From Oikopleura dioica (taxonomy: Eukaryota; Animalia; Chordata), in the NCBI GenBank assembly GCA_907165135.1, contig OU015568.1:10788001-10852000 (forward strand): a DNA stretch of 64,000 bases, written 5' to 3'. Below are positions 39,806 through 63,179 of the stretch, piece after piece. How positions within the stretch are numbered: the stretch's first letter is position 1; each line of letters begins with the position of its first letter. The notes under the pieces are model-generated. The model ran no database searches, was not told the origin of the DNA, and saw nothing but the letters and a program-made list of their open reading frames with translations. The translations under genes and the position numbers were made by a program.

Positions 39806-40541
39806 TTACAGAACATGTCCAAAGACCCATATAAATTCGCCAAGTTGCTCTATTTCGCCAAAGAGATTAGTCAAGGTTCTTGGTTGATTCATAGAGGTGA
39901 TGTCTTTTCGGAATACTTCATATCTAAAACGGGGAACTTGTCTTTCGTTGAACAATTCCTCTGCGGCCTCGTAGCCCTCTTTGTGTCCAGTTTTTGCAGC
40001 TACAGTTGGATTGGTGCTGATGTCTGTATTATTGGTAAAGACAACAAAGACTTGCATACAATTTCTAAAAAAATATAATTTTCTAAAAGGCAATTAAAAC
40101 TTACCGCAGAGTAATGGCTTTTTTTCCTTTTTCATAGAAATTCTGTCCGATAAAAATCATTGAAACACCCAAATGCCTACGTGCATAAGTTAGTAAATAT
40201 TCTACAGTTTCGCTGTCGAGACATTTTGATCACTGATCATCAACAATGATCAAAGTGTCGCGCTTATTGTCGTTGGCAAAATTTTTATCGAGCCAAGTTT
40301 GAGTAGGCAAGCCTATTTTTGTGTAAAGCGTTTGATGAGACGGTAGATTAATGTCTAGATGTTCTATTCTTGGCATAAAGTAATAGATGTTGTTTATTTC
40401 ACCGGCAATCGCTTCATTTTCAATTAGACTTTTTACCCACTCACTTTTTCCAGCGCCAGTTGTTCCACAGATGAAAAAAGCAGTTGGGTGTTTAAAGAGT
40501 AAATCGTCAGAATCTATCATTGGTACTTCAAAACTGGTCAT
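39806..40541 (-). CDS. Maverick A32/FtsK-like genome-packaging ATPase (in-frame TGA at 40230-40232)
   Basis: FKHPTAFFICGTTGAGKS (Walker A), LIIVDDQ (Walker B), then the same frame continues YARRHLGVSMIFIGQNFYEKGKKAITLR|NCMQVFVVFTN. GT-AG intron at 40065-40104. Confidence 0.88.
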
Positions 40542-40543
40542 GG

Positions 40544-40999
40544 TTATTCGCTGTCAGAGGTATCGCTGTCTCCACCCAGCGGTTCTGCCACAATGACATC
40601 AATGAATCCTTCGATGTCGTATTTCAAGGCTTGTTTGCGCGAAGCTTCAGTGTCCGTGTTGCGATCACGGTGATTGTTCACGTACACTCTAATCGTGCGC
40701 ATTTCGTATAGCATTGAAATGAGATTATGAAAGTACGCTACTTGCTCGGGATCAGACTTGTCAAAGTTGTTTTCGTTGATGACAAAGCAACCGGTCTTGT
40801 ATCGTTTGTAGGCTTTGGTGTAGCTTGGAGCAACTCCTTTCTTGGGTTTGTCCTTTTTGATGATTTTGCCTGCAAAGTAGATGGCAGATGGATGCAAGGA
40901 TGGCGTGTTGATGTTTCGTGGCTCAATTGTCAGAGCATATCGTTTTTTCTCTTTCTCAAGCAACTCTTTGAAATCAGATGCTTTTGATTTTTCGGTCAT
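40544..40999 (-). CDS. Hypothetical viral protein, 151 aa, abutting the ATPase start
   Basis: Intact ORF; its stop lies 2 nt upstream of the ATPase ATG. No recognised motif. Confidence 0.65.
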   Translation of the reverse strand: MTEKSKASDFKELLEKEKKRYALTIEPRNINTPSLHPSAIYFAGKIIKKDKPKKGVAPSYTKAYKRYKTGCFVINENNFDKSDPEQVAYFHNLISMLYEMRTIRVYVNNHRDRNTDTEASRKQALKYDIEGFIDVIVAEPLGGDSDTSDSE

Positions 41000-41246
41000 G
41001 TTCGAATGGTTGATGCTTGACCGGTCACTCTGAATATATACTGTTAATTTATGCAGAATACACTAGATGTCAGCCTTTGTAAAAAGTATAAATAGCAGAA
41101 CGGTATTAATTTATAACCATTCCGAAAAAAAGAGAATCAGAGAAGGCACGAATCAAGAAAATTGATAAAAAATTCAGGTAAATAGGAAAATTACGAGTCG
41201 CAGCTTTTTTAATTGAAAAAGAGTAGTGAATGATCGCTACTGAATA

Positions 41247-42182
41247 ATGAGCGCCAGAAAAATAAAGTCGAAAAAGAAATACGCCCTTATCGAAGAGGAC
41301 ATTCTCAAAAGCATCGCTTCCAAATTCAACTACAATCCAGATACCAAGTATTTACGATTTACCGCTCCAAAAACTGGTTTGGAAAATACCCCATTGGTAA
41401 AATATCCAGACTATAATGATATTGAGACGAAAAACGGGGAAAAGCTCGCCAAGGCAGCAAACGTCAAAATCCCGATCGGCGAAAGATATCCCTCCTCCTC
41501 CGAAGAAGAAGAGGACGATGCCGAAGAGGACTCTGAAGAGGAAACCGACAGAGAAGAATATCCCCCTTGGTCGGAATACGACGAGCAGGAAAACAGTACC
41601 GAATCCGAGCCCGATTATTATGAAGCCAAGCGCTACGAACCCAAACCCTATACTGAAGAGGAAAAGGGGTCGACCTCGAAAATACCCACTTCCGGAGAAA
41701 GAAGTGACAATCGATCCGAATCCAGTGAGCATCGACGACGGAACGACAATCGATCCACCACAAGAAAGTCAATTCTCAAACATCGAGATGTGGCAAAACG
41801 ACGTGGCGAAGCATCTAAATCAGTTAGGATTAGGGAGCCAGAGCGCTTCAGCCCAATTCCAACAACTACTCATGCCAGGCGCAATAACAGAAAAAAACGG
41901 TCTGTTGTTTTTGACACATTTGATGGGGGCTCGAAACGAGCGAAACGAGCTGACTATCCCGAAAGAGCTGTTTTCCATGAATCCTCTAGTCCAGCAGCAG
42001 CAGCAGCAGCAGGTGCAGCAGCAGACACCACGCCAAGAGACAAATCCGATACAAAACGTGGAGGGCGAATTCTTGCAGGATCACCAGTCCCACCAGACCC
42101 TGATCGACGAGCCCGCTCCACAAATGACACAATCTGGGCAGAAGGACAGCCCCTTGCCGACTGCGAAAACTTTTGGCAGTAA
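41247..42182 (+). CDS. Hypothetical viral protein, 311 aa, with acidic and Arg-rich low-complexity blocks
   Basis: MSARKIKSKKKYALIEEDIL..., followed by an E/D-rich block and an R-rich block. It overlaps the integrase start by 59 nt. Confidence 0.65.
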   Translation: MSARKIKSKKKYALIEEDILKSIASKFNYNPDTKYLRFTAPKTGLENTPLVKYPDYNDIETKNGEKLAKAANVKIPIGERYPSSSEEEEDDAEEDSEEETDREEYPPWSEYDEQENSTESEPDYYEAKRYEPKPYTEEEKGSTSKIPTSGERSDNRSESSEHRRRNDNRSTTRKSILKHRDVAKRRGEASKSVRIREPERFSPIPTTTHARRNNRKKRSVVFDTFDGGSKRAKRADYPERAVFHESSSPAAAAAAGAAADTTPRDKSDTKRGGRILAGSPVPPDPDRRARSTNDTIWAEGQPLADCENFWQ

Positions 42183-43160
42183 TAACAGTCCCAATGTTTT
42201 TCAAGATTCCTTTTATAATCACGAAAAGCCACTTTCATATACGTCTATGGATTTGAAGCGTTTTAAACGCATGAATCCTATTATATCTAGACATAAACCT
42301 TTTAATTCAAAATTTACACGAAATCCTATTATTGCGCCGTCGCTTTATTCTCACTTGATGTCTGATACGATTCATGCGTATAAAAATGACGGAGGTGTAA
42401 ACAATGGATTTAAATATATTCTTGTTGTGATTGATTGTCTTTCGCGTAAAACTTTTGTTCGACCGTTGAAAACATTAAAAGGGGTCGAGACTGCACGTCA
42501 ACTGGAAGACATATTTATGAGTATGCAAGATCGACCAGGACATTCCTTCTTTGAGACTGATTTGGGTGGAGAATATTCTGATCATGTTTTGCCTTTGCTT
42601 GAAAAATGGAACATGACGCCAGTAAAACTGCGTAACCAGCATAAAGCAGCGTTAGCTGAGAGAGTGATGTGAGTTGAGTTTTTATGTTGCTTTGATGCTG
42701 AGTTTGTTTTTTAGTGGAACTCTTCAAGGCAGACTGAGAAAGTATTTTGATGCTCATGACGGGGTTCGAAGATGGGTTCACATTTTGGAAGATGTGAATA
42801 AAGCTTATAATAACACTGTGCATTCTACTACTAATATGGCGCCTAATGATGTAACTCTTGAAAATTCACTTGATCTTTTTAAACGACTTGAAAAGAAGCG
42901 AATGTCTTCTAAACAAAAAAGACATCAACCAAACGGAGAGTCGGCGATTTGGTTCGCATTCCTGTCAAAACATATCTCAAAAATAAGTTTAAAAGGGTGC
43001 AGATCCAAATTGGTCTGATGAACTTTATAAAATAATCAAAATAGATTTTGGAAGTTTGGTTCCTGTTTTTACTTTGGCAGATGAAAGTGGCGCTCCGCTT
43101 CCACGCCGATATTATGAGAATGAAGTGAATTTTGTTAGAAACGTTCTCGATGAAGAATAA
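42124..43160 (+). CDS. Maverick rve-family (retroviral-like DDE) integrase
   Basis: FYNHEKPLSYTS, LMSDT, NNGFKYILVVIDCLSRK, FETDLGGEY, KAALAERVI|GTLQGRLRKYF, YNNTVHSTTNMAPNDV, RVGDLVRIP and FKKGADPNWSDELYKI. GT-AG intron at 42669-42714; two 1-nt deletions in A-runs near 42920 and 42995. Confidence 0.92.
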
Positions 43161-43732: not shown

Positions 43733-43747
43733 ATAAATTTTTTTTAG

Positions 43748-45592
43748 ATGGCGGAAACATTTGGACAGCTTCTTTATTTGACTGATAAATCGGCCACAGA
43801 TGATCCTTATAAAGGAGAAATCTGTGTTGGTCGATTGGGGAGTGAAAATACTCCAGGAGTGATTTTTTTTGATGTTCCGGAAGATAAAAGATCGCTCAAG
43901 CCGGAATTGTGCATGTTTACGTATAGGCTTTTGGTAGATTCGAATTACGTTCCGGATAATGGTTTGCACGCTAAAATGATAAGAAGACTGGTCATTAGAC
44001 TTTGTGATAATCGTCTCTTTGATTCGTTTGACTTGCACGAGTATACGTTTATCAATCAGTTTATAACAAAACTGAACATGTCTGAAATGACTCAAAATAC
44101 GGAACTTTTTCCAAGTGGACATTGGGACAGTAGGGAATTGAATACTGATGAGCTGGAGGATCATTCTTTGTATCACAATAACAAAAAAATTGTCGAGCAT
44201 CGACATTCTTATGCGGAAAAGATTTGGAAGCCAAAGTCAAATCTTACAGTCAATACAGATAGTGAGGGTATTTCATGCGAGTATTTGGTTTACGAATATG
44301 ATATAAGAGCGCCGCTTGTTCATGGGTTGGCTAGACAGCCACGCGTCCTTCCGGCAAATACAAGAACTTCTTTTGAAGTTGAGTTGAATACTTTGGCAAA
44401 TTTTTTGATGAAAGTATCCGACTATCAAAAGTATCGAACATCTACAGACAACAGTTCTAAGTTTGTATATCCTTTCAACAAGCACCTTAAAACCACTCGC
44501 AAGAACAAAGCGCATGCGACTGCGGCTGTTTGTGACTGCGCAAATTTTTATAAAAAAGGAGGACATGGAAAGTACACCCATGTTTATAAAACAAAGTCAA
44601 ATGGAAAGTACGATTTTGAAGAAGAAGTTGATGAGACAATTTTCAGCAAGGACAATGACAACGTCAATTGGAAAGCGCATACAGTTTTTTATGATGAAGC
44701 AGATTTGGCTCGAGAAACGATCGATGGTAAAGATTACCTTGTTTTTTATATGGAAAATGTCTTGAAAGAAAATGAATTGGCGAATCCAATAGACTTTATG
44801 CTTGAATCTGTTTTTGTCAACGCGGCAAAGATTGAAAGACCATTGACTACGGGTAAATCAGGTGAAGTGAGTATTCCTTTCTTGTATCCAAAATTTGTGG
44901 CAAAAAGATTCAAACAAGGCTTGCGAACCGACACTTTTGAGGTGTCGTCAGGAAAAGTGAGAATTTCATAGTTTGTTGTTGTTGTTGTTGTTTCAAATTT
45001 TCATTTAATAACAGGTCCGCTTCCACATATGCTCGTTTTGACTGGAATGCCAAATGATCAGTTTACATCTCCTTCTTTTGACACGTGCTTGACAAAAACT
45101 ACGATGAACGATCCTGCCTTTAAAATCAAGGAATTTACAGTTTTTGTCAATTGGAGAACACATTTTAGAACGCCATGGAGAAAACCCCTTGATCATTATC
45201 TAAACTATCTGAGACACAATGGCAGATATGCAAACAAGTCGCTCGGAGGTGGAATGGATTTTTTCAAGTTTCAAAACGAAAATTGGATGGTTCCATTGTG
45301 CTTTGATGACGATATCGGAATGTCGGGCACAGTCAACGTCAAAATCACCTTTGAAAAGCCTGTTGAAAAATTTGGAATTTGCTCGTTATGAAGATTCCGA
45401 TTGAGGAGCTTCATCTTAATAGAACACGAAACGGTTGGTTATTATTTCACTTTTTTTATTATCCATTTTTTAGAAGCATCTGTCATGCAAACAAGTGTGA
45501 CTGGTACAAAACGAAAGACTGATGACTTTTTGCTGTACAATGAAATCGCAAAAAGGCGAATGAAAGAACATCTTGAATCTGTTGAAAAGTAA
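43748..45592 (+). CDS. Maverick major capsid protein (PY, double jelly-roll type), about 580 aa
   Basis: Maverick-MCP-like segments: APLVHGLARQPRVLPANTRTSFEVELNTLANFLMKV, FMLESVFVNAAKIERP, FEVSSG|PLPHMLVLTGMPNDQF, YLNYLRHNG, SGTVNVKITFEKP and WNLLVMKIPIEELHLNR. Introns GA-AG 44952-45014 and GT-AG 45434-45473; 1-nt slip near 45370. Confidence 0.8.
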
Positions 45593-45678
45593 TTGTAACT
45601 GCTCTAATAAGCTCCCTCGTTGAATAATAAATAAGACAGCCCTTTTTAAGCGCGAGTTTAGTAATTGCAGGTGTAGAA

Positions 45679-48600
45679 ATGAAACGGATCTTGGCCCGAG
45701 CGCCAAGAGGCAAAATTGAAAAAAATCAAAGAAAAAAGAACCAAAGATTTTTATTCTCAAGAGAAGAAGGGCAAAGACATCGATCAAAGCAAAATAAAAA
45801 AGACTTGTATACAGGGTATCCTGAGGGTGGATGTTCCTACGAAATATTCGATAGTGAGCAAGTTCCGCCACCATCATCCTCTCCACCGCCACAGTCTCTG
45901 AAGGCGAATGCTACACGTAATTCTCATTCAGAGTGTGCGCTCGAAGATTTGGATTTTGGAAATGGTAGCAGCAGGGATTCTGAGCGGATGTCTGACAATT
46001 ATTTCGATTGTCCTGTGTCTGACAACGATGGTGATGACAGTGACGCTAATTCCCGTGCTGACAGTGATTTATCTTTATCGGAGGGAACTGTCAGCAATGT
46101 TTATTCCGCAATATTGATTGGTATCAATTGGTGGAACTTTTACAAAAATGCTCTCCTCATATTCCAAATAAATTTACAAAAGCGCTTCGTCAAAGTTTGA
46201 TCAAGTGTGACCCTAGTGAGCTGGAGAGGCGATTTGGGCGGCGACCTACTCGAGCACATTTACCCCAGATTGAAGAATATTTGGGGATTGATTTGTATGT
46301 GCTTCTTGGAGGTAAATTTTCTCCATTGGCGATTTCGTACCGACCGTATCGAGCAAGTGGCCCGCTACACATGCGAGATGTTTTTGACGAGATTGAACAT
46401 CAAAATTGCCACTTGGGCACGCATAAAAGACCGGTTGTTGTGCTTCAAGCGGCTCGAGCGTTTTTTCATACTTTGGGCGTTTTTTATACGATTCCACATC
46501 GGCGCTCGCTGCAAGTGATTGAAGGCGACTGGATTAGCATTTGGGCTGCGATTGTTTCCGCACGTTGGCCGAAGCTGCCCAAAGCTCAATACAGTACACA
46601 GATTTTAAAATTAAAAAGCGAGCTTGGGCTTGCTACAAATGAAATGTTTCAAATTTCAGATGGAATATTTCACAAAATCCGGGTTAAATTTGGAATTGCC
46701 GTTCGACTTTTTGTTGCAACCTTTGTCAACGATAATTGCAATGATAAGACGTGTTTTTATTCGACTCTTGGCGAGGCGGACAATGTCGTGCTGAATATAC
46801 TCGTGGCGAGTTATGATGAGGATGATTTTGGTCGAGAATTTCGCGAGTTTTCTGGAATGAGTTATCGTAAGCTGCAAGAGGAGCCATATCGCAATCCGGT
46901 ACTTGCCTCAAACGTGGATTATTCTCGGCGGAAAGAGATTGCCGTCAATATGGAGGATGAAGAGATTTGTCGAGTGATGCGATGGCAAAAAGCTAGCTCA
47001 TTTCACAGTAAACGAGATCGAGCGATTCTTTCAAAGCGCAAATCTACAGATGGAAGATTTCAGCAGTCATCGTCAACAAAAATTGACAGATTAAAAGAGA
47101 TTCACCAAAAACAGTGCGCCGCCATTCGCAAAGAGTCGAAAAAACAGCGCAATGCGTTTATTGACGACGAGGCAGAAGATTCTGACGGAGGATCGTCGTC
47201 AGATTTGAGTCTACACGATAGCGATTTAGAATTCATCAACGATAATGAATCTGATTCGTCGGTTGAAGTCGAGGCCACACCACCACCACTACCACGCCAA
47301 TTGCCTGTTTTTGACGCTGCAAGTAGCAGTAGCAGCGATGAATTTACAAGTTCTTTTGAGCCGGTTCGTAATTTGGCTGGACTGGTTCCAAACGTGTTTG
47401 ATGAGAATACGCGAGTTCGAGTGCTCAAAGATTCAGAAGTCAAGAAATTGCCAGTTTGCCCGACTCGAGGATGCTTGTACACATCGTCTCGAAAAGAGTA
47501 CTTTGACAAGCATGTTAAAACGTGCAGCGGCGAAACAAAGACTTGGATACGCCAGAGTGTTCAAGGTTCACACGTTTTTGATTTCAAAAAAGAACTTGTT
47601 TCCGAAGGCTACTTGCCAAGTGAAGATTTTTGCGTCGACTTTTATGTGGTTTTTGATATTGAATGTTTGATGAGTGTGGGGCCCTTTACCAATTGTACAT
47701 TGAATGAGAATGTGAGCAAATTTCACAATGTGAGCACAATTGCCTGTTTGACCTCTGATTGTCGTCAAATGGGCTTCACTCGACGCGACATGAACTACGA
47801 ATCAAGCCTTGTCATGATCACCGAGTTTGTCAATTATCTGCTCTCTCTAAAGGCGGAATTGCGCCGCGATCACGTGCCAGAATGTGTTCTCACTGGAATT
47901 GACTTTTATTCGGCGCGGATAAAGAGCCGTCTTTCGATGCGCATCAATGATGGAACCACTCTTGCAAGTTATGGCGAAATGGGCGAATTTCGAAAAAAGC
48001 TTCAATATTTGCAGAGTTTTATGAAATTGATGGTTTACAGTTGGTGTGGAGAGACCTATGATCTTACGGTCATTTATCCAATGTTGATGGCGGTTTTTTA
48101 TGAATTTTGCGGTCAGAATACGTCGAAAATCAATGTCATCAAACGAGGCGGCGGCTACATGCTGACAGAATGCATGGGGCTGAGTTTCCGCGATTTTAGA
48201 AATTATACGGCTCCGATGAGCTTGGAAAAGCTGGCAAGATCGTGCGGTCTTGATCCATCACGCTACAGTAAAGGAAGCTATCCGTACGAGTGGTATACGT
48301 CTATTGATCAACTTTCAAGAGCTACAGAATTTCCTGCCTACATTTGTTTCTACTCGTCAATGTATGCAAAAAGTCGCACCCCTGCCGAGCAAATGAATAA
48401 AATAATCTGCGAAAGAGTGGCCAGCAACGACTGGGCACGCAATGAAGACGTATTGCTTGATATTTTTGGCTTTTTGAGACTTGACTCGCTTGAAAACGAT
48501 CCCGCTTTGAGGGAATTCTTTCAGGAGGAAAATTCAATGCTTGTTAGCGATCTGGGCGTCAACAATGCTACTGAGCTGTGCGCGCATTATTTCGAGCAGC

Positions 48601-51600
48601 TCGAAAAGATTTTCGCCTATTCTGAAGAGGCAAATTGCTATCAATGTGATCCCGATTGTGAAGAAGCGCAAGAGTTTTTTCGCTTTTCGATTGTCGATTA
48701 CGAGGCAAGTTTGACACTTTGGCGAGAAATTGAAGCGTCAAATGAGCACCATCGCATGACAATGCTCATGTTTCTGATGAATTATAATTTCAATGACGTG
48801 CGATTGCTTCGAGCGGCGATTGAAGCCTACTCTAGAATGTTTGTTCAGTCGTTCAACGTCAGCATTCATACAGATTTGAGCATTGCCAAAATCGCTCAAA
48901 ACATAGCCATGTCAATGTATCAGCCCAAAGTGCCACCAATTATCTCCATTCCACCTCAAATGGATTTTGTGTACAGAGATTGTCGCAATAAATTGAGTGG
49001 TGGCATTGTCCAAGTCTTTCATCGAGCGGTGTACCTCAATGGGCCCGATGAAGACGTTCCAGTGGCTGCTTATACAGTGCCAAATGGGTGTACTGTTTTG
49101 GCTCTGATTTTGTACGATTATACGTCGCTTTATCCTTTTGCAGTGAAGCAATTTTTGCCATGTGGCCCTGGCATTTGCTACTATCCAAGCGATCGACTGA
49201 TGGAGCTCAAACGGCAGCTAGAAGCAAAAACAAAAAACGTTGAAACGCTTGAAGCCGGATCAAAGAGAACAAGTTCTCTGATTGAAGATGTTTCAGGCAG
49301 TGATAATTCTGACGACGACTACGATGATATTAGCCACTGTAGGAAATCTGTCGACGATTCAGAATTTCGACAGCGGTTTTCATTCAACGATTTTCGCGAA
49401 GTGAGCGGCAACCTCAGTCGAAGATATTACTCGTATGGAATGTTTGCTCAGCGTGAAAATACAAACCTTGATTCTATTCGCTACTTGGAGTACTTGAATT
49501 GGGATCCCCAAAGAGAGTACTCTGGTCGCATCCAACACGCCTACAATTATCAAGAAAAAAAGATTGGAAGATTCAGTGTTGATGGATACTTTGAGAGTGA
49601 CACGTGCATCCCTGGCACAAATATTCCAGTTTGCACGATTATTGAATTCAATGGATGTACGATTCATTGGTGTCCTTGGTGTAAGACGAATCCGTGGCGA
49701 GGCCGTCGCATCAAAGAATACTGTCCAGTGGAGAAAAAACGCATTCTCAAAGTGTTGACGCTAGACGAGCTACTGGCGCGTGATAATGCGAGAATGCATG
49801 AAATTGTCGAGACAATTCGCGCACGAGACAAGATTGTCGATCCGGGTCAGGACACGAGTTGATTATTCTTTTTTTCTTTCTTATTTTGCTGTTGCTGCTG
49901 ATCAACTCGTGGTAGCTACCCTCGCCAAAGCATCAAGGCCCGCGCAATTTTTTTCATAAAATTAAAATCAAATCAATGTGTCGCTGGATGCGCAAATGGA
50001 CATGGCTGTGCTCGGGTCAGCTCAGCCACAGTAAACCCTACTCGCCCCTGTATCCGATGCTGTTCAAATCTGCTCAATCGTGGCGAAATGGTGGTAGTCA
50101 AGATGCAGGAATCACTGCCGACGAGTTCAAACAGTGGGTAAAGCGCCGAGATCCACGCCACCCATCAGAATCTGCCTTTCATGGTCTGGCAATTGTGGAT
50201 TTACTTTCACCAGCTTCCGTAATCGCCGATCATGCAGATTTGCCGCCAATTTTTGACAAAAAAATTCTCACCGCTGACGATTTCAACGGTCTAATGCGCA
50301 CCAGCTTGTCTGAGAAGGAAATTGAGCGAATGTTTCCCCAGGCGGAAAACGTGCTCTGCTACCATGCTTCCAATTATTTGATCACTGGCGAAATGCTCGA
50401 CTATCTTCAGAATAAAGGCGTACTCTATCGAGTGCACTACTTTACTCAGTATTTTAGAGCGGCTCCGTTTGAGCACTTTGTGGAAAAATTGGCCGCCGAG
50501 CGCATCAAAGCTCACATGGCGAAAAACTCTGTCCTCTCGCTCATCATCAAGCTACTAATGAATTCGATGATTGGCCGTTTTGCGCTCGCCGTCTCTCGCT
50601 TCCTGTCAACTCGCGTCGTAGATAGCTCACAAATGGCGCAAATGCTGAGAACGCCAATGCGCCGCGGTACCAAGCACCTTCGCGCCGAAGATGTCTCACT
50701 CGATCCGCTGCATGAAGTGACGCTCAACAAGCGCAACGTCACCGAAGACTTGGCCGTCCACATTCAAAATTTTGTCTATTTGGGACGCGGTTGTACTTTT
50801 TTCCTTTTCCGTTTGCTAGTTCCAAGGGGCCGGGCAAGCGCCCGGGGGTGGGACCTCCCCCCCAGGTCCCGACCGCCCGGGCGGCAGTTTAACGTAAATG
50901 ACTTTCAAAAAGGCATTTTTTAATTTTTTTAAACGTATGGGAGCCCGTATGGGAGCCCGTATGGGAGCCCGTATGGGAGCCCGTATCAACCAAAAAGGCC
51001 GCCAAAACCAACGAGAATATAATCAAAAACAAGGAAGCAGTTATCAATTCACACGAGCGGCGACGTACGTCCCGACGGCTACACAGCAATCAGAAAATGA
51101 AAAGCCTGAAGAAAAAGGTTCGAGAGAAACTTGCCAAAATTCTGGAAGAGCCATACGAAAAGCCATTACCGCCGCCTCCGATTCCAGCGCACGGAATTGA
51201 GCCGCCAGCGGCAGCGCCACTAGCGTCGCAGCCACAACTACCACCGGGACCACAAAAAGGTAAAGAGCGAGTCAATTTTGAAAATTAACGAGTCTAGAAA
51301 AACCTCTTCGCCCATTAACTTCGATAATTGCAAAGAATCCAACCGAAACCCTTCAAAAACAACTCTTCCTTCCAGACAATTGGCCGAAATATCGACTTGC
51401 GCCACCGGTCAAATACGCTTATCCAAAGCAAACACTTCTCGGCTGTAATGGGGAACTGTGTCTCTCCTGTGGAAAGTATTTTGATGCAGAATACTATTTG
51501 GAAATTGATAGATGCATTCGCGAGCAAATTATGCAGAAAAAGGACTTGTGTTTTCCGACGCGCGCACCTCCTCACGCCTTTTTGGATGAGCCGATTCTAC

Positions 51601-52578
51601 TTGTCAATTGTGGACACATAATCTGCAACTCCTGTTTGATCAACAAGGCGGCTCCAGTTCGTGTCAATACGCACACAGTCTACATGCACGACTTTCCATT
51701 TGTTATCGATCAAGAAGACATGGCCAAGATGCTCTGCCCGTTCTGCAAGTCGATCTTCAACTGGGACGGAGTTTATCATTATTAGGAAAACGTATTTTTT
51801 CGTACAACCGCTTTACAAGAATTCAAAACTGCACATGTTTAAATTTGTAGACGTTTTAAAGAAATATATGCGGCCGGGCTCTTATAGATTTTGTTACTGC
51901 GACACCGATTCTCTCATGTTGGCACTTGATAGTAAAAAATTGGACGACTGTGTTGCTGAAAAATACAAATCCGAATGGATAAGCAAGATCAAGCCCGCCT
52001 GGTTTGCAAAAACAGAGTGCCCCATCTCCGAGAAAACGCCCGGCCTGCTTAAAGTTGAAGGATCCCTTTCGGCTGGTTGGTACTTGGCATGCACGCCAAA
52101 ATGCTATCTAATGGCAAAAACGACGCACCTCGACGAAATGGAAAGAAAAATTCTTCGCTTTGCCAAGAAATACTCTAATGGTGTTTACTCGGAACAGCGC
52201 GATTCTGATGCCAAAGAAATCCTCGCAGATATGACGCTTCTTGAGCGCAGCCAAGGCTCAAAAACTCCTTACAATATTGTCAAAAAATCATCCAAGGGAT
52301 GCAATCTCGACATAAAGCTCAGGTAACTCGACAAACGAGGGAAACTATTTTTTTTTTGTAGTCTTTATGCATACATGTGGAGTGTTTTTGGCTGTGATAT
52401 GAGAAATCGTCTCGAAAAGCCCATCACTTCCTTCCAAATGGATAGAAAGCGCAATCGAATGAAGACCACCACAATGCAAAAGAGAATAATGAACCCTCTG
52501 CTCAAGAAGCGACACGTTTGCGACGATCGTATAAGCACTCTTCCCCTTTTCAATTCTGTTACAAATCAATTTTTGTAA
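45679..52578 (+). CDS. polB: Protein-primed family B DNA polymerase, about 1,900 aa, 4 exons
   Basis: Exo I VVFDIECL, exo II SWCGETYD, KGSYPYEW, exo III YNFNDVRLL, SGGIVQVFHR, motif A YDYTSLYPF, nuclease-like insert QHAYNYQEKKIGRFSVDGY...IEFNGCTIHWCPWC, motif B KLLMNSMIGRF, motif C YCDTDS and C-terminal KKRHVCDDRISTLPL. Introns at 49851-49915 (GA-AG), 50783-51819 (GG-AG) and about 52323-52360 (GT-AG). One G-run slip near 46083. Confidence 0.92.
50935..50986 (+). repeat. 12-bp tandem repeat GTATGGGAGCCC x4.3
   Basis: Exact copies start at 50935, 50947, 50959 and 50971, followed by a partial GTAT. Confidence 0.95.
51097..51785 (+). CDS. RING-finger (C3HC4-like) protein nested in the PolB intron
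   Basis: Exon 51097-51259 and GT-AG intron 51260-51297 join in frame to ...ELCLSCGKYF...EPILLVNCGHIICNSCL...MLCPFCKS. The frame is open upstream through the VWEP repeats, so the true start may be near 50900. Confidence 0.8.
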
Positions 52579-52654
52579 AGCTGTTTACGAAAAAATACGT
52601 TAATAAAAATCGTTGCTAATTTTACCCGAATATTTTTGTTTAGATTGAGCAAAC

Positions 52655-53580
52655 ATGGAAAAAAGATATAATATGAGAACAAGACGAGCGCCGCCTCAAC
52701 AACAAACCAAATATAAGCGAAATATGGCTTCAATTATAGACTTTGTAAGGCGTAGACGTAAAGAGACACAAGCTAGATTTGCCACAAATGCGCGAGAAAA
52801 TTTTGTTGCCATCAAAGACACCAACAATAGTGCTTTTGCGCTCACTCCTCAACAAATTGAATGGTTTTACCCCTCAGCAAAGAAGAAAATCAACTGGGGC
52901 TATGGCAAAGATCACATGGGAGTCGCCGCCAGAGCTGACATAAAATTTCTCAAAGAATTCATTCAAAAGCGACCAATTCCGAAAGACTACTTTGAAGAGC
53001 GAGAAAAGCAAGCCCTCATCGCAACAGATTCTCATCTACGATTCCCTCCAAGCTACTATATAAGTTGTAGTTTATTTAAATTCTTTGTTGATTTTTTGTA
53101 GAACAGCGCTGGGAAGCAACTCAAATGTACTTTAATTCAAATCAGACAAAGGGACGCCTCCCACAACACTACAATCGCTACACAATCACAGTTTTAAACG
53201 ATGTTGACTTGCCCGACCTTGTCGAAAAACTGGTGACCAATCTCAACGGAATGATTCAAATCTATCTCGACTGTTACTGTAGCGCGCTAAGCGAGGCAAC
53301 TGCAATCGACGAAATTACCGGCCAGGAATCCAAAATCGAAGTCTGCAAAATAGTTTATCCGAACATGGCGGGGAAAATCAACGATACGACCGAAATTACT
53401 GACCATATTGATCTCGAAAAATTGAGAAGCGAAGCCAAATTTGAAAATTTCACCTCTCGACTTACTCAACGAGTTTTCGAATCTCGAGAAGCTTTCCGTC
53501 AAAGCAACGTTCGTCTCAACCGAATCCTCTGCTACCAGATCACTATTAATGCTTTTCCTCCTAGCTGGAGATTTGCTTGA
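52655..53580 (+). CDS. Viral protein whose C-terminal half resembles the conserved N-terminal domain of Maverick PolB polyproteins
   Basis: Two exons joined by a GT-AG intron at about 53065-53100. Basic N-terminus (RYNMRTRR). C-terminal IQIYLDCYCSAL...EITGQ...KIVYPN...EITDHIDLEKL...SNVRLNRILCYQITIN pattern. The similarity is from memory and needs a profile search. Confidence 0.6.
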
Positions 53581-54219
53581 AATAAAAAGACAGAAATTTA
53601 TGTTTGACAACATTTATTTTTTTTGCATAATTGGCACAGTGTTTTTATACTTTTTTTGGTGTTTTTTTTTTGTTTCGCATGCAGCACAAAAAAGCAGTGT
53701 AAAATAGTAGAAAAGAAAATGTACAGTAGTGAGCACATTAAAAGAAAACCGAAAAATATCAAAAAAGTGTGTAACAACTCCAACGTAAGCTCCCAACGTC
53801 TAATGGTAAGATGAACTTGTAGAAACAGGCTAAAACAAGTCAATCAACTCAGTCCCCTCGCGTTAGAGTCGATCGACGTTGTTCCATCAGCAAAAATAAA
53901 GGACAAAAAAACATGCGCAATAGATAATAAAAGTGTTTGCATCTCATACCTTTTCCATATTAGATAAAAACCGTTGCTAATTTTGTTTAAAGCGATGAAA
54001 AAAAAACGGACACAAAAAATATTGAAAACTCAAAATTGTAAGGCAATGCGCGCACAAACAAAGAGTATTTCCAAATAGATTACTTTTCGAAAAATCAACT
54101 AACTGACCTTTATAATGATAACCAAAAAATAATGACACGAGCGATTATACTAGATGAGAAACAAAGTAGGAGCAATAATTACTTGATCCGCGCGCGCAGT
54201 GATAACAACAAGCAAGAAA

Positions 54220-56309
54220 TTAATTGCTCAGAAGATAATCGATCAGGTCTCCGGTGATTGAGTCACAATCGGCTGGTGCTCTTGTTTTTCCTATATTTTT
54301 TGGTAAATATTTTGAAATTATGAAAAAAGTCTTACCGTTTGATTGTGAAAGAACCGTCGAATCTTCTCTACGATGCGTTTCATCATCTGACTTTGAGACT
54401 TGTTGATCAGCTTTAGGCGGCTGATCGGCGTTTCCAGCGGCAACTCCATCAGTGCAGTTGTTATCGGATGCATTGACTGAGTGCTCATCCGTCTTGCCCG
54501 CCTGTTTTTTAGAAATGAGTGAAGATTTTTCTCCGGTGGTGATTTTTATACCCACAGAGTCGTTCTCCTTAAATATTCATGCTTGATTTTTTGAGTGATC
54601 AATTATATTTTTACCTCGACATTGTCGTAGACGGGTATCGGGTTTCGTGGACCCTTCTTTTTCGAATACATGATAAACTGCCCCGCGCTGTAATAGCCCG
54701 ATTGTTTAACCGTCTCTTTGAATTTGGCCGCTCGATTTTCGTAGTATTCAAGCAGATGTTTTTCTTTCATAAATGCGGAGATCCTATTCTCAACACAATC
54801 GCCAAAACTTCCATTCAGCACCAGCTCGCAATACAAGGCCAAACAACGGGAAATCATAGTATGGATAGTTTTATCAAATCCAGAATTGACAAAACTGCGA
54901 GCGTTGCTTTGTGCACATCTATATCTGTTTCTGGTTTCTTTATGGCGTAGAGTTTCAGCAGTGCCAATATGTTTTGTGTTTTGTAGTACTCGCTCATCCC
55001 AACACATTTGAAACGCATCCTGATACTTGTATCTTTCGTCTTCTGCCCATTCGGCGAGAAATTTTCTAATGAGAATTAGGGCAGCAACATTCGTAAATTT
55101 GTATTCGTCTCGATAAAGAAAGAGTCGATTCATTGCGCAGATAAATTTTTTTGTTCTTTGGTTCCATTCGTTAAACTCTCCAAAGTGGCGACCCAGTGGC
55201 CCATTTACTGTCGCGTTTTTCTTGATGTCGTTGGGAATCTTTTGAAAATGCGCCAAATGATCGAAACTATCGTCGTCGAGTCCTGCAAATTTTGCATCTG
55301 GATAAAGTGAGCTCCCAGCTGAATCGAGAAACATCAAGTACCGAAAAAAGTCGCTGTCAAAAAGAGACTTTGTATCAAACTCTGCATTGCCCACGAAGCC
55401 ATTTGAAACCATTTTTAATTTTGTGTCGAGATAAGTTGTGTCGCAAAGCGTCTTTAGCAGCCCCAGATAATCGTGTGTGATGTCAGTCCCAAAATGAAAA
55501 TCAACATCATCAGCGGCATTATTTTTATACGGAATAGCAGTCCTCTTTAATCGCGAGTAAAGTCGCCAGTTATTATCGTCTTTACGGCCTCCGACCTCGC
55601 AACTTCGATAAAATTTCAAGCCAAGAATAACCGTCCAAAATTCTATCTGAGCAATTTGTCCAGATCTTTGTTGAAGCTGGGGCAAAACGTAAACAGAATC
55701 AGGATTGATGATCATTTTTCCACATTTGTCAAATTTTGAACTTTTATGACAAATTCGCGTAGTAGGATGCCGCAGTTTGCAGCAAACTGCTTTTTTAATT
55801 TCAGTTTTGGAGGCCAGTGTTGGAGGATTCGGTTCAGGAACATAATTTGAAGTCATAAATCGCTCCAAAGCAGCAAATGAAAAAAAGGATCCAATTCCAG
55901 TAGACTCATTTAATCGATGTTTAATGTCCACCCAATTGAGCGCTTTTGGTTGAAATGGTTCTCCGCCTTCAACCATAAGAGGACACTGCTTGAATATACT
56001 ATATCGAGCCGTTACCAATGATTTCATATGTTGGCAATATCTGTACCAAGTGCGAAAGTGGAACGACAGCGGCTTTATTCTTTGACTCTTTCGCAGCGCG
56101 ATCGGCAAATCAGGAGACGTACTCGCAGGTCTTTTTCTTGTCGGAGAGGTGGCTTGAAAAAAAAGAAAAAATAAAAAACATTTTGCGCCGGGTTGCTTAC
56201 CTTTTGGCTTTTCAGGAATAATTTCTTTGAGTGTTTCGGCAGATGAAATACGGGTAGATAAGGCATTTTGATTGACCATTTGAAGATCAGCAGTAGTAAA
56301 AATCGGCAT
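54220..56309 (-). CDS. Large orphan viral protein (about 650 aa, spliced)
   Basis: ORF 54603-56309 splices (YDNVE|ENDSVGIKITT) into ORF 54220-54555. Globular-looking core with many aromatic residues and a Cys cluster CCKLRH...CH...C. Confidence 0.7.
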
Positions 56310-56404
56310 TGTAGATGAAGAATCACACGTTGAAGGAGGAGCTGTACAAGATTGAGAGCTAAATTTTGAAAAAATGAAAAGAAATTGAAAGTTTAAATCT
56401 TACT

Positions 56405-56731
56405 TTAAAGAGTCGAAAAGAAATCCTCCAGTGGAATCTCGCCTCCGGTCGCTACCCACCAAATGAAGAGCACTATCAGAACCATCAGGCATGCCATTCC
56501 TATCGCTCCAGTTATGAACGCACTCGTTAATAGACCCGGCTGGAGTCGAATTAGTCTCTGCTCTTGGGGGTAAAACACTTGAGGTCGTTCCCGAGGAGTA
56601 TACGGTGGTGGTTGATCCTCCGGAAAAGTTTCTTGACTCTCGCTCGAGTTGTAATGCGAGGTCGTGTGGCCCGACCATCCACTGCGAATCGTAGATTCCG
56701 GACTCGAGCCCAGTACAGCTGGAGTTGAGGA

Positions 56732-56768
<37 letters not shown>

Positions 56769-57247
56769 CCACAAGTCATTGGAGGTGGCGGCGGTGTCAA
56801 AGTACTCGTTGAACTGCAGGAGCTCATTGTAGGTGTTGTTAGACGGATTGGAGTGATTGTTCCACTCTGACATCGATCCACCAGTATTGTTGAAACCTCG
56901 ACACCAGTTTCGCTGATTGGAGTCGTCCTCCCGCTTGTTGACGGCTCCCCCCGAGCAAAATAATTCGTCATATAGAGCAGTTGTTCCTCCCATTGAGCCT
57001 CCGGTTCCTCGTATTCCTCCGGCATGTCCATCGACAGAATCGGCTCCTCGTAAATCTCGTCTATGTAGTCCTCCTCTTTCATCAGAGCCATCTCGGGAGC
57101 TGCTTCGAGGGCATCCGTAAATGGAGTCTCGCTGTTCTCCCAAAGCGTGTTCGTCTTTATTTTCAAATTTAATAAAACAAAATTGAAATACAAATTAACC
57201 TGTGTTAGATCTGGATACTCCTGCTGTTTGTTCTGCTGACTTTCCAT
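56405..57247 (-). CDS. Viral tail-anchored membrane protein with PPxY motif
   Basis: Acidic N-terminus, poly-Ser tract, DQPPPYTP and C-terminal TM AFITGAIGMACLMVLIVLFIWWVA. Confidence 0.65.
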
Positions 57248-57399
57248 TCTCGATGCCTTTTTAAAAAAAAAATGTTACAAATAAGTCGCTTGGATGAAAG
57301 TGTGTCTCTTTATTCAAATCTTACTTTTCATACACAGGCTGGTGTCCTGTCGGAAGGTGAGAAAAAATATCAAAAATGCTCACAGGAAAAAGGTTCAAA

Positions 57400-59206
57400 T
57401 TATTTTTTTTTCGCAGCTCTATCAGGCAAAACTCGTCTCGTGGAAGTTTGATCTCGAGCTGGTCGACGTTGCCCCTTTTTATTGCCCACTTCGTTGCTGG
57501 TGACGACTTCGGCGCTATCAGGATTTGGGGTGTTATCCTGTTGAACCTCCTCCTCCTCCGGTTGTTCGACGATGGCGGCGGCGGCGCTTAATGAAAATAG
57601 AGTAAATCACACTCATTTACTGCATACAACGTTACCTCTCTATCTCGATCACAGTCTGCGCCGTAGCATCTGCGACTTCATCCGGATGAGCCTCGTCATT
57701 CTCTTGTTCTCCATCAATCGCCATATCCAAAGGCTTTAATTACTCGTCAAAATCAAAACAAAAAAAATATCACATACCGAGATAGTCTCTTCCAAGTCTT
57801 GGCTCGACAGATTCTTGAGCTTGCTTGTCTCGCCCGCTTCTTTCAATTCGTTCACCAAATGCAAGCATCTGAGCATTTTTTTGGTGTGTGGAGTAATCAA
57901 CAAACCGTTGATTTTCTTTAGCGCCTAATTGATTTCAATTAACACGCAATTCCAAATTATGGCAATAATTACCTTTTTTGGGCTCTCGTGTGCAGTCACA
58001 ATATCCGGGCGAGTTAAATCAACATCGGAAAATGACAATTTGGGAATTGGCGAGAGCGGTACATCCTCCAAGCGAGTAGAAGAAAAATAGTTGACGATGG
58101 CGGGACCAGATGGACTTCGCGGAATTGTTGTTGTAACTTCCGATGGTGGCGGCGGCGGTGGAGGAAAAGAAGCAGGCTGCTGGATAGTCACTTTCGCCTC
58201 GACAGGAACTTGTTCTTCTATCCCTCCTTCGTAAAACGGATTTCCTCGTATCTCGGCGGGATCTTCATAAACAGGCTCTGGAACGAGACGCTCATCAACT
58301 TGTTGAACTGCGGCGTGATGTGGGTTGTCGCGAAATTGCACCCCATTTACTTGTTTCGGCGCTGGCAACAGGGGGTCCTTCTCTTCCTCAGTTCTCACAA
58401 TATTTTTGTTCTCTTTCTTTTTCTTTGATTCGGCTAAAACAACAGATTACTTTTTGATTTTTGAAAAAAAGATAAACCTTTGTAAGAATAGAGACTGCCC
58501 TCGCGATGAAACAAGTACAAATCTTCGCCTTCGTTTGGCTCCTTTTTGCAGCAAACTTCGCAAAAACAGTTCAAGTAGTTGCCGATTCCGTTTTTATGCT
58601 TTGCGCAAAAGTTGCAAATTCTCTTTCTCCAAACTTGCGGAAACTCTTTCATGCAATAAAAGAGCACAAAAAGAACAACACAAACGCAGATGATTATCGA
58701 CCAAGTGTTGTCAGATTCGGCAGCGGTCTGGATTGGCTCAGTAGTCGGTGTTTCGCTGCAAAAAATTTTTTTTGTGTTTTTAAGGTGCATCCAAAACTGA
58801 GGTGCAGTTGAAACTGAGGTGCTTTTCAATTCAAGGTGCGAAAAAAAAAATAATAAGAAAATAATATTCTTTTTTAATAAATCAAAAAACAAGCACCTTG
58901 AATCTAATCACCACCTCAACTCCAAAAGGTACCTTGATTTCAAACTTACCTAGTAACTGGAGATTTTTTCCCTGGAGCGTCTGGTTTGACTACAATTTTT
59001 TTAGTGCCCTTGTTCATCCTCCACTCGATACACTCAAGAGTGAATTCGTCTACGCCGCCCAGCCTGCACCGATTTTCCATATCAATTTGAGTCTAATCAA
59101 GGGCTCAATAATTTCAAAACTTTTAAGCAAAAAAAATCTAAAATTTTGAGACCTTGACCTGAACTTGTGGCAAAAGCCAGACTAGGATGATCATCGTCAA
59201 CGACAT
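57400..59206 (-). CDS. Viral type I membrane glycoprotein-like protein with long Tyr-motif cytoplasmic tail
   Basis: Signal MSLTMIILVWLLPQVQV, short Cys-containing ectodomain, T/P-rich stalk, TM WSIIICVCVVLFVLFYCM, Cys-rich juxtamembrane segment, and a tail with PVYEDP, NPFYE and a polyproline run. At least 6 introns. Confidence 0.6.
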
Positions 59207-59240
59207 GTGACTATCCCCGTCTAAATAATTTTTCTTTGAA

Positions 59241-60523
59241 TTAAAAGTACAAGAAAAATTTTCTTTTTGAAAGGCAGTCGGCAAATTCTTGGCTTTGACT
59301 TTGTCGATTTATGTTGAATTTCTGCCAGCCGCTCCAGGTTGCAATGTCTTTGTCCATTTGTTGTGCGCCAAACTAAAAAACGGCGTTACTTTGAGAAAAA
59401 ACAAATCATCACTTACCAAGCCCATCAGAAAGCCATTTTCCGTAAATGTTTGTTTGATTATGTGTTTGATGTAAGCATCTGTTGGATCGACAATCGGATT
59501 GAGCGCGGTAATTGTAGTAATGCACTTTGGCTTGCAATCGTTCAAGCGCAAACGAATTCCAATCATAAATTTGTCAAAACCCTCTAATCGATCGTTACAG
59601 TTCATTAGACGAGCGCATGAATCGAGCACTTCCGATCGAGGTGTTGTCTTTTTACTCGAAAGCTGGATCGCTCGCCACAAAAAGGTCTCAAGTTGTCGAT
59701 CAATGCAAACACTCTGATGTCGAGATAAATCAGTCGGGGCACGATCGAAAAGAAAACGAGAGTCCATCTAAACATGAATATAAGCTTTTTTCTTCTTGCT
59801 TGATAATGTACCTGAGTAAGTAGTTGTCGTAATCTTTCACAAAATTTGGGTGGTGTTGGACTAGGCAAAAAACCCATCAATAGAAGCAATGATGCTTTTT
59901 CTTCTCCAAGAGGATCTGCTCGTGTAGGCCAAGGACAAGCTATTCGCGGCCCAACAGAACAAGCCGCCTTCAAAACTGTAAACGGATTTCCCAGTGAATT
60001 GTCGCACATGTCAATCAAGTCCCAACTTCCGTCAATAAGCTGAATCTATACAAAATTTCAAAATTTTGGCTTGTTCACGCTTACCCAAACATGAATCTTT
60101 TTTGGAATGATGATTCCAGTCAATGGCGCAGTTGTAAACTCGACAAAAAACCCGCCAATTTGATGCCACGGAATCAAATCGACTTTTTCTGAGCTTTCAA
60201 TGTAAAGGCTGCCAACCATCGGAAGAACACTGGCTATTGGGCGAATGATTTCTACGGCGCGAGGATTAACACAAGATTCGTTGACTTGTTTGCACATCAG
60301 CTGAAAAACGTTGCCGAATCGTGAATGGCAGAGAGAATTGCCAAGTCCAAGGCATTCCGTAGTGACATCGAGATATCTTTTTTTCAAAATATCCGAGGCG
60401 TCGAAGCGAGAATTTTGAGGAGTTTCATCTAAAAAGCCCTTTTTAACACAATGATGGACACGAATAAAGAGAATTACCTAAAGTTTTAGATGAAATATGA
60501 ATCAACTCGAAATACGGATCCAT
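59241..60523 (-). CDS. Orphan viral protein (5 exons, about 370 aa)
   Basis: MDPYFELIHISSKTL| joins by canonical GT-AG introns through ORFs 60058-60387, 59605-60018 (part) and 59309-59767 (part) to a stop at 59241. Confidence 0.65.
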
Positions 60524-60748
60524 AGAAGCAAAACTTGTTTTGTGCTTTAACTGTAATCGACGTCTTGGCGGAGTTTGCGGTCTTTCTAAACGAACTTGAG
60601 TCTTTTCTCGACACGCTCAATTACTTTTTGCTCGCTGAAATTGTGATTCCTTCACACGCGAAAAATTACGTCCCATTCAGGCTAAAACAAAATAATCAAC
60701 CCTGTGTCCTGTTTCAGTAGTAAAGTAGCTCAAAGGTGAAGACAAAAT

Positions 60749-61682
60749 TCAAGTGTTTTTCGTCTTGAGTTCTTCAACAACTTTCTTGAAGTTTTCTCGA
60801 GCCTTGACGGGAGTAGTGGCTAAAAAGAATTGATTACACTCAATTTAAAAATAAAAAAGTTACCTTCTGGAGTGAAGAAGCGAGTTTCCTCTTCTTCGTT
60901 TTCGACTTCCAAAATTCGAGGAATTGGTGGAGCGGGTCGTCGAGGTCGAAGTCTTGGCACTGGAAGCTCATCGTCGAAGAGCAACTGGCGTCGAGACGGC
61001 CCAGCAATCGCCATTGGCGAAATTGTTCGCACTCGCAAGGAAGGTTTCTGCCGAGGCTTGTTTGGAGATCGAGCAAACGCAAATCCTCCGGTGTAGTCGC
61101 CTACATTTCCGCAAATTTGCACTCCAACATCGGAAGTAGCCACGGCTGAACACAATAATTTAAAGCGATCTCACTTGAACTAGAATTACCTCCAACTCCT
61201 TTAGCAATAGTCTTGGCGACGGAAAACGCCTGGCTAATCACAGACTTCTTCTTTTTGGGCTCGGGCGATTCAGGCGGTGTTCGAAAAAGCGACTCTCGGC
61301 GCAAAGGTGCTTCTGGCTCAGCTGGTGGAGGAGCGAACTGAGGGATCGGAGGAAGAGGTCGCGCGAGCACTTGAATATGAAATTAACTCAACTCATTTTT
61401 TGAATTTTTAATACTTTTGTTGGCTTCTTTCTCGAGCAAAGAAACTGCCGCTGTTTTGGCCTTCTTGCCCGCCTTTCGTGCCGCTTTGACGATTTTTCGT
61501 CGGCTAAATTTGATATTTAATATAAACTGATTCATAGTGCTAAAATACCCTTTCTCGATGAATCCGGGGGTCATTTTTGAAGCCGAAGTCGATTGTTGAG
61601 TATCAGCGTAAAGCCTCTTGCGATTCTTCTCGGCGATTCGAGGACTTCGCCTCGGAACTGGTGGAGGAGCTGCGCCAGACAT
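60749..61682 (-). CDS. Pro/Arg-rich disordered viral protein with short linear motifs
   Basis: MSGAAPPPVPRRSPRIAEKNRKR..., several PxxP motifs and SRRQLLFDD; spliced across ORFs 61383-61682, 61101-61370 and 60820-61155. Confidence 0.55.
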
Positions 61683-61900
61683 TTTACACTGAGCCTTCTA
61701 TAAAATTTAAAGAGATTAAATTTTTTCCCTACAAATTTAATAAAGGCCAAATTATGCAATTAACAATGAGAAGAAGGTTGTTGGAACTTGAGCGGAAATA
61801 AAGGCAGATACCGAGTAAAAGTTTAGAGGTAAAGTTAAGAGAGTAAGTTTTTTAGAGGTAAAAATTTCAGAGCCGAATTAAAACTATTTTTTTCAATGAA

Positions 61901-62782: not shown

Positions 62783-63179
62783 TTTTTTCGATTATCTAAA
62801 AAGTTAAAACATTTACAAAAAATCAAAGAAATATATTCCAGTGCTGACAGGTGAGAGAAAGAGGCTTGTTATGAACCTTGGGACAAATATTTCAATGGAA
62901 CTTTTAAAACGCGATCTGCGCGTCAAGTAAACTTGACAGATAGAAAAGAAACGCAACTAGCAGGCTAGCAAGTTAACAAAACTAAGCTAAAGAGATAAAC
63001 TTATCTAACAAAGAAAGACGCAACTGGCAAGGACAAGAGTCCTAGAAAGAGAGAGAAGGCTAGAAAAAAAGGCTAAATAAAGCGCAGCCTAGATCAAAAA
63101 TTAAAAATCAAAAATATACGAGGAATGGTGTCTTCGTAACGGCAAAAGTTCCTAAATAAGCAATAAGCTAAACCCTTTT

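Follow-up and report, generated by a model that had tools for sequence, protein, structure and literature searches.

We describe an interrupted DNA polymerase gene (polB) in a 64,000-nucleotide (nt) stretch of the Oikopleura dioica genome (contig OU015568.1, positions 10,788,001 to 10,852,000 of the forward strand; hereafter the window, whose own numbering is used throughout), where it belongs to an element that resembles an integrated Maverick/Polinton virus. Between its motifs B and C, polB is split by a segment of 1,037 nt (50783-51819, + strand) that begins with GGAC, ends with AG and contains a RING-finger reading frame on the same strand. With a probability of roughly 0.62, we regard this segment as an old, stem-assisted non-canonical intron (intron 2 of the gene) and the RING frame as a passenger gene that shares the 3' end of the polymerase. 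The reading draws on the sequence, DNA samples, related polymerases and a tree.

The segment interrupts polB at a conserved position

Motif B (KLLMNSMIGRF) lies within an open reading frame (ORF) at 49916-50923 and motif C (YCDTDS) within another at 51640-52326, and the two frames differ. Joining 50782 to 51820 gives a register that agrees to the codon with uninterrupted relatives, and the residues flanking this junction are conserved among relatives on both sides. Near its ends the segment carries perfect 10-bp arms at 50787-50796 (arm A) and 51802-51811 (part of a larger region, B), each of which occurs once in the window. A stem of at least 10 bp between the first 20 and last 22 nt was found in 51 of 40,000 random 1,037-nt stretches of the window, a null set that includes the true locus and other repeats, and none of 51 GT-AG intron-like candidates had a terminal stem of at least 9 bp. 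The original prediction, made from the letters alone, had placed the two motifs 1 kb apart, drawn the junction at 50782/51820 and noted the GGAC...AG ends and the perfect inverted repeat. All of these are borne out by the sequence, and the alignment to relatives that it called for fits the junction. It overlooked two further breaks in polB (49851-49915 and 52323-52361) and a longer inverted repeat between the 3' end of the segment and the polB stop region.

To judge the integrity of the locus we compared four DNA runs: X1, which may be the source of the assembly; X2, from another study; X3, from another sample; and X4, which has too few letters on the intron side to bridge. Both junctions of the segment were bridged by contigs in X2 and X3, and a joint skipping the segment was found in none of the four runs. 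We therefore rejected a misassembly, which had been named at the outset as a possible source of the arrangement. No single contig crosses the whole segment, and all of them break at 12-bp repeats within it. Five of the seven classified polB substitutions in X2 and X3 were synonymous and none created a stop; one more change near the gene start was left unclassified. Reads on 49750-52750 in three of six RNA runs, from which the element appears to be absent and which were used without a host-gene control, numbered 0 (X8), 0 (X10) and 2 partial ones less than 95% alike (X5).

An Rfam search of 49700-52800 with E values up to 1 gave no match, and we rejected a self-splicing (group I or II) intron because this search found no catalytic RNA core in that region.

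The break is shared by related polymerases

Searches with polB exon 2 returned 8 relatives in one case and 113 in another. The tree was built from 34 rows (the window itself, 25 members of the family whose sequence extends to the junction, and 8 outgroups), and rows ending before the junction, most of the distant matches and the cluster duplicates P0122-P0125 were left out. Of the 26 family rows, 14, the window included, break at or beside the junction codon, 9 are ORF calls that read through, and 3 are O. dioica gene models, which may conceal an intron. The thirteen interrupted relatives are 41-62% identical, and the window sits inside a clade of 11 rows, all interrupted (support 95/94). More distant relatives do lack intron 2. 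P0014, P0015 and P0126 are truly without it, because they stop exactly at the start of a canonical intron further downstream in the window (intron 3) and are thus unspliced DNA. All relatives with a species-named source are from O. dioica, and the sequence is present in a marine metagenome. Together with a clustering of intron-like candidates at 38-45 nt, this points to O. dioica or kin as the host. Scans of viral contigs yielded no DNA of relatives across the junction, and a metagenome locus, L001, ends before it. At 1300-1440 of L001 the frame changes in a variable Pro-rich linker of the related polB, with an in-frame stop further on, through either error or decay.

A divergent copy in X2 (a 3,601-nt contig, approximately 83-86% identical in conserved patches only) departs from the polymerase reading at this codon too; the departure begins with GA, is preceded by an exonic AG and runs into a stop within a few codons. 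The other 807 nt of the contig gave no alignment to exon 3 at 80%. This copy is also 19 nt shorter across 50203-50681, a non-multiple of three that points to another intron or a frameshift there. The read-through tails of the relatives are unrelated to each other and 1-64 amino acids (aa) long, several being Pro/Gly-rich like the GC-rich hairpin region of the window. Gene model P0012 enters the downstream exon via Lys, as an AG acceptor permits.

We rejected a fresh insertion because the divergent copy and 13 relatives are broken at or beside the same codon. The original prediction had allowed that sibling copies without the segment might reveal a simple inactivating insertion; this does not hold for the nearest relatives, whose clade is interrupted throughout. 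Its other suggestion, that a gene-carrying element inserted into polB, survives in part, in that an origin by insertion is possible and would be old, not fresh.

The ends of the segment resemble those of larvacean non-canonical introns

Intron 2 ends with AG and has G at +1, as do the GA/GG-AG spliceosomal introns of the Oikopleura type. Eleven relatives have a clean junction, and their first residue past the break is E (six), A (three), D or V (one each), all encoded by codons that start with G. With the GG of the window and the GA of the X2 copy, G occupies +1 in 13 of 13 clean cases (GA 8, GC 3, GG 1, GT 1), 12 of them non-GT; the donor types of the 11 relatives are each read from one amino acid, the rows are related rather than independent, and the count is no probability. 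An invariant G as first base of the break looks like the mark of a larvacean non-canonical splice donor. Of the O. dioica introns, 11-12% are non-canonical and the median intron is 49 nt (PMC8008620), many O. dioica introns are GA-AG (PMC7072748), and GG donors are documented in a copepod, Eurytemora affinis (PMC5714493). Given the first of these figures, a non-GT donor in a larvacean host is not exotic by itself. The shared position of the break and the G at +1 thus favour the original description of the segment as an intron. It is very probable that the host U2 spliceosome, which accepts non-GT donors in Oikopleura, removes it.

A second helix is predicted to compete with the terminal stem

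Region B (51789-51823, + strand) contains the 3' arm and the acceptor and is complementary both to arm A (50787-50796, + strand) and to a third region, C (52568-52601, + strand). Region C complements B imperfectly over approximately 30 nt; it overlaps the polB stop and lies directly before an AATAAA at 52602. The B:C pairing was computed at -37.7 kcal/mol, and the next best of 1,158 scanned positions was site A, at -22.1 (mean -10.8, standard deviation 3.4). The half of B:C that lies outside a variable T-run gives -27.2, compared with -18.7 for A:B. In equilibrium folds of the growing transcript, which are rough at 1-2 kb, the predicted probability of A:B was 0.99 (to 51860), 0.18 (52200), 0.82 (52560) and 0.00 once C was present, at which point B:C reached 0.97 and the acceptor was fully paired. 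The B:C helix is thus predicted to mask the acceptor of intron 2. A role for B and C in DNA inversion was also considered, and no inverted form was found among the four DNA runs.

These pairings suggest a mechanism. The GG donor would have to bypass a strong acceptor at 50819 and the acceptor of the RING gene at 51375, which the A:B stem would enforce. The first of these closes a pyrimidine tract plus AG (50798-50819, + strand) that is a candidate proximal acceptor, giving a 37-nt intron and an early stop, or alternatively a candidate spliced-leader acceptor for a RING message. Because the GG donor and its acceptor are weak, two better acceptors lie between them and the genome is one of approximately 49-nt introns, we consider it reasonably probable that the stem is required to pair the donor with an acceptor 1 kb away. 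By joining the intron ends, A:B would allow co-transcriptional splicing to polymerase. Once C is transcribed, B:C over the stop codon would lock the acceptor at 51819, ending the period in which polB can be spliced and favouring the nested RING gene. More tentatively, then, displacement of A by C may confine polB splicing to the period of transcription and shield RING messages from cutting at this acceptor.

RING messages could arise from an internal promoter or through addition of a spliced leader, which in O. dioica needs no more than an unpaired acceptor (PMC6883708). In messages lacking A, B:C would hide the acceptor at 51819. There is no AATAAA or ATTAAA inside intron 2. The RING messages would therefore extend to 52602, and polB exons 3 and 4 would serve as their 3' untranslated region. 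The original prediction had proposed a toggle between polymerase and E3 ligase; the competing B:C helix provides a physical candidate for it, and such a toggle is plausible, if rather doubtful on the modelled pairings.

The nested RING frame

The second RING exon (51376-51785, + strand) has eight candidate zinc ligands in C3HC4 order (Cys/His at 28, 31, 78, 80, 83, 86, 120 and 123 of the exon) with the spacing C-x2-C...C-x-H-x2-C-x2-C...C-x2-C and unusually long loops. The frame gave 13 Pfam matches, mostly to RING families and all below cut-off (zf-RING_5, E 8e-6, 26.2 bits against a curated cut-off of 27.9), and its neighbours in the atlas, at 0.89-0.91, are RING clusters of viruses and eukaryotes. 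A single-sequence structure model had a predicted local distance difference test (pLDDT) value of 33, and no sequence relatives were found at E 0.1 among proteins of 80-256 aa. Upstream, we modelled a basic, Pro-rich first exon (51097-51259, + strand; ATG at 51097) and, from sequence and frame, a canonical GT-AG intron (51260-51375, + strand). Of the spliced C3HC4 RING gene originally proposed, the spacing is therefore present, the Pfam matches fall short of their cut-offs and the splicing of 51260-51375 is a model. On its RING pattern, the product is a putative E3 ligase.

The frame looks maintained. The RING core is nearly invariant, with one listed change in X2/X3. By contrast, the Pro-rich linker of exon 1 (51204-51254) is hypervariable, with 9 substitutions and several indels in X2/X3, compared with 5 and 9 substitutions over 6-7 kb upstream. 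X2 has 3 additional nt in the linker, and over 50957-51711 the contig of X3 exceeds the window by 15 nt. The variability of the linker may reflect slippage or diversifying selection.

An upstream ATG frame (50898-51117) could join RING exon 2 in frame via a GT at 51118, in which case the protein would have a different N-terminus; left unspliced, this frame is an upstream ORF of the overlapping type. Between the pyrimidine tract and the first RING exon lie a GC-rich hairpin and then four 12-bp tandem repeats (50826-50993, + strand; fold z = -3.8 for 50760-51000; repeat family D5). In X1, X2 and X3 the tandem repeat (50934-50993) is found at a second locus as well, between other flanking sequences.

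The remaining exons and introns of polB

Exon 1 (45679-49850, + strand) encodes the N-terminal region, the exonuclease and motif A; it matches Pfam DNA_pol_B_2 (E 2.5e-8) and is colinear with the uninterrupted relative P0126. Exon 2 (49916-50782, + strand), with motif B, matches the same family (E 4.5e-10) as well as homologs. Homologs also define exon 3 (51820-52322, + strand), with motif C, and exon 4 (52362-52578, + strand), which runs to the stop codon. Exons 3 and 4 are open and 37-41% identical to relatives. They are separated by intron 3, a canonical GT-AG intron of 39 nt (52323-52361, + strand), and P0014, P0015, P0020 and P0126 end at the same place. One frame discrepancy near the start of exon 1 is probably an assembly error, and small indels relative to the window are common to all three short-read runs. 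Over 44000-56000 such indels occur at four listed places; these too are probably assembly errors, so stray frameshifts in this region are not to be read as decay.

A likely intron 1 of 65 nt (49851-49915, + strand) has GA...AG ends and an 11-bp stem (49853-49863/49901-49911). A stem of this kind was reached by 13 of 40,000 random 68-nt stretches, a figure computed with the end placed 3 nt too far, which leaves the arms unaffected. The register across intron 1 matches six relatives that lack it (P0003, P0004, P0009, P0010, P0128 and L001), and an exonic AG precedes its donor. The four listed X2/X3 variants, including a 1-nt deletion, all fall in the loop and none in the arms. GTTG at +8 to +11 is common to intron 1, intron 2 and the X2 copy. 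A fully canonical 80-nt alternative to intron 1 keeps the frame but removes conserved residues. The divergent X2 copy, which is 62 nt shorter across 49851-49915, probably also lacks intron 1, which would make this intron a recent gain. A search of the window for further stem-closed introns gave, apart from introns 1 and 2, only putative candidates that may be chance.

Weighing the explanations

Several observations speak against an old, stem-assisted intron, beyond the indirect reading of donors noted above. The window lacks the exonic AG before the donor, having TG, and Leu where relatives have Gln; published accounts call this AG highly conserved or obligate at GA/GG donors (PMC7072748, PMC5714493). 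Canonical in-frame alternatives exist, at the cost of 3 conserved residues before the junction or of a conserved stretch after it. P0003 and P0005 diverge 2 and 4 codons early and fall outside the clean-junction count. Three more interrupted rows sit in two other places of the tree, and a single clade of interrupted rows was rejected (approximately unbiased test, p-AU 0.027), so that intron 2 is either an ancestral intron that was precisely lost in some lineages or one acquired on at least two occasions. As for the stem, the equilibrium folds are unstable, with A:B dropping to 0.18 at 52200 and recovering to 0.82 at 52560. Even when A:B forms, the donor and the acceptor are left unpaired with a probability of only 0.06-0.16. 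The T-run in region B is 2-3 nt longer in the short-read runs, which places a bulge in the inner B:C helix.

The patchy presence of intron 2 on the tree would also suit an origin as an introner, a non-autonomous transposon with terminal inverted repeats (TIRs). The segment would then be a constitutive intron without regulation, the arms being relic or tolerated repeats, the RING gene cargo with its own promoter and C an unrelated inverted duplication. In Fritillaria, non-canonical splice sites derive from introner TIRs (10.1101/2025.08.15.670264), and Amoebophrya introners bear 8-20-nt end repeats (PMC7789003), a range that covers the inverted repeats between the ends of intron 2 (10 bp) and of intron 1 (11 bp), the latter lineage-specific and with a perfect stem. 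A direct repeat over the boundaries of intron 2 is weak in the window; the last 8 nt of the intron match the end of the exon in the X2 copy at all but one position (7 of 8), as in a target duplication. We nonetheless consider this origin unlikely. With intron 2 common to proteins that share only 41-62% identity, a perfect 10-bp stem is hardly a neutral relic; 12 of 13 donors are still non-GT in a host where the rate is 11-12%; C is placed exactly across the stop codon, adjoining the polyadenylation signal; and neither arm has a second copy in the window.

Use of canonical GT donors near the junction would yield a polymerase 3 or 7-8 residues shorter or, from the GT at 50790 or 50793 to the AG at 51375, a protein in which the N-terminal part of PolB continues in frame into the RING exon. 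The frame is preserved in each of these combinations, and a GT at +8 also occurs in intron 1 and in the X2 copy. However, residues conserved in all close relatives would be lost on one side of the junction or the other, the GTs at +8 and +11 lie inside the predicted stem, and the invariant G at +1 would be unexplained, all of which make such use very unlikely.

The interrupted clade might instead have no working polymerase and be replicated by helper elements with an uninterrupted polB in the same host group. Such relatives exist (P0014, P0015 and P0126), P0011, P0122, P0013 and P0123 are annotated in O. dioica as ending at the break or shortly past it, and the donor of the window is atypical. 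By contrast, the open and conserved exons 3 and 4, the mostly synonymous substitutions and the persistence of the break over deep divergence with a donor-like first base leave this idea highly improbable. A two-subunit polymerase fares worst. Here the N-terminal half would terminate inside the segment, and a second message, trans-spliced to a leader at the AG at 51819 and translated from a nearby Met, would encode the half with motif C. An unpaired acceptor is enough for trans-splicing in O. dioica (PMC6883708) and a Met lies five codons past the acceptor, but the residues between acceptor and Met are conserved, hence translated, and the read-through tails of relatives share no common sequence.

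The element and its surroundings

From approximately 36,000 on, the window resembles an integrated Maverick/Polinton. Pfam DNA_pol_B_2 was above its cut-off in polB exons 1 and 2, identifying a protein-primed PolB (pPolB), the one hallmark found in full. The Maverick context first suggested is in keeping with this block, which also holds a likely integrase, capsid protein and packaging ATPase. The retroviral-type integrase gene probably has several exons (41244-43018, + strand; Pfam rve in one exon, E 2e-4, 22 bits against a cut-off of 32.6). A likely double-jelly-roll major capsid protein (43748-45391, + strand) scored 0.95 to Preplasmiviricota capsid clusters in the atlas, with a recognition value of 1693, under the 2300 mark, and no Pfam capsid match. 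An exon with a Walker A motif (40230-40553, - strand) is a likely part of the packaging ATPase, with weak FtsK, IVa2 and A32 matches, all below cut-off. No adenain-like protease was matched by 132 ORF queries, in an element whose genes are split into short exons and which extends past the window. Its right end lies past 64000, and the X1 contig continues beyond. The element (36000-64000) thus appears to exceed 28 kb, with many multi-exon minus-strand genes at 54600-64000. Mavericks range from 15 to 40 kb, and more than 28 kb counts as large.

T-rich AG acceptors lie just before start codons at 43740-43750, 52602-52660 and 54500-54520, one of them 40 nt past an AATAAA, as expected under operon-style spliced-leader processing of viral genes. 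Upstream of the element are the host genes NEMF, RhoGEF and carboxypeptidase; a PDB search identified host NEMF only. The host side also carries a repeat at 16134-16726 that resembles a miniature inverted-repeat transposable element (217-nt inverted arms, 159 nt apart) and another at 23279-24500, with 75-nt/15-nt tandem arrays in inverted orientation.

Comparison with known systems and implications

The herpesvirus terminase gene UL15 has a canonical intron that contains UL16 and UL17 on the opposite strand. There, as is proposed here, an essential DNA-virus gene is split by a gene-containing spliceosomal intron, whereas the intron described here is non-canonical and stem-closed and carries its gene on the same strand. 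Phage polymerase genes harbour group I introns and inteins with homing endonucleases. Group I introns also occur in polinton-like viruses, outside polB (PMC12220804). Like these, intron 2 carries a gene, occupies a conserved position in a viral gene and is found in some relatives only; unlike them, it has no Rfam match, its cargo is a RING frame rather than an endonuclease, and its ends look spliceosomal.

With the adintovirus-type Maverick/Polinton endogenous viruses (PMC8502044), the element shares pPolB and, in one integrated block with it, a likely rve-like integrase, jelly-roll capsid protein and packaging ATPase. It differs in a polB with three proposed introns, two of them non-canonical and one gene-bearing, and in that no adenain-like protease was found among the scanned ORFs. 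The main text of that source, in the part available, contains neither "splic" nor "RING", and its single mention of "intron" concerns a group II maturase. The GA-AG and GG-AG introns of O. dioica and E. affinis (PMC7072748, PMC5714493, PMC8008620) have the same G at +1, variable +2 and AG end, whereas intron 2 is 1 kb long, stem-closed, gene-bearing and viral, keeps its position across a divergent family and, in the window copy, lacks the exonic AG. Introners with TIRs (10.1101/2025.08.15.670264; PMC7789003) are similar in their non-canonical ends, in a short inverted repeat joining the exon boundaries and in a possible target duplication. Intron 2 departs from them in that no repeated family was seen in the window, the arms are set back from the ends, the intron is old with an intact gene, and one arm has a stronger third partner. 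In C. elegans eri-6/7 (10.1101/2024.01.15.575659), repeat pairing likewise guides unusual splicing, with a Polinton link; there a host gene is trans-spliced through long repeats, whereas here a short stem lies in the element's own polymerase. The accessible part of PMC13326754 contains nothing on stems or viruses. In the literature covered, mostly non-subscription texts, we came across neither an account of a Polinton polB with a gene-carrying non-canonical intron nor one of these Oikopleura elements. Each ingredient is already known separately, and the combination in a Polinton polB is apparently undescribed.

On the regulation of the polymerase in animal Mavericks we found almost nothing in the literature. 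The interruption explains the truncated polymerases in O. dioica annotations, and such copies may be miscounted as dead. It also offers a test case for the splicing of a weak-ended 1-kb intron in a genome where introns are typically 49 nt long. It is conceivable, though we hold it to be unlikely on the modelled helices, that a larvacean Polinton family gates its polymerase through a weak non-GT intron under mutually exclusive RNA helices, which would form a protein-free switch between replicating and persisting. An intron that lies between motifs B and C, is mostly non-GT, encloses a gene and is predicted to form competing helices may provide a handle on when an endogenous Polinton can replicate.

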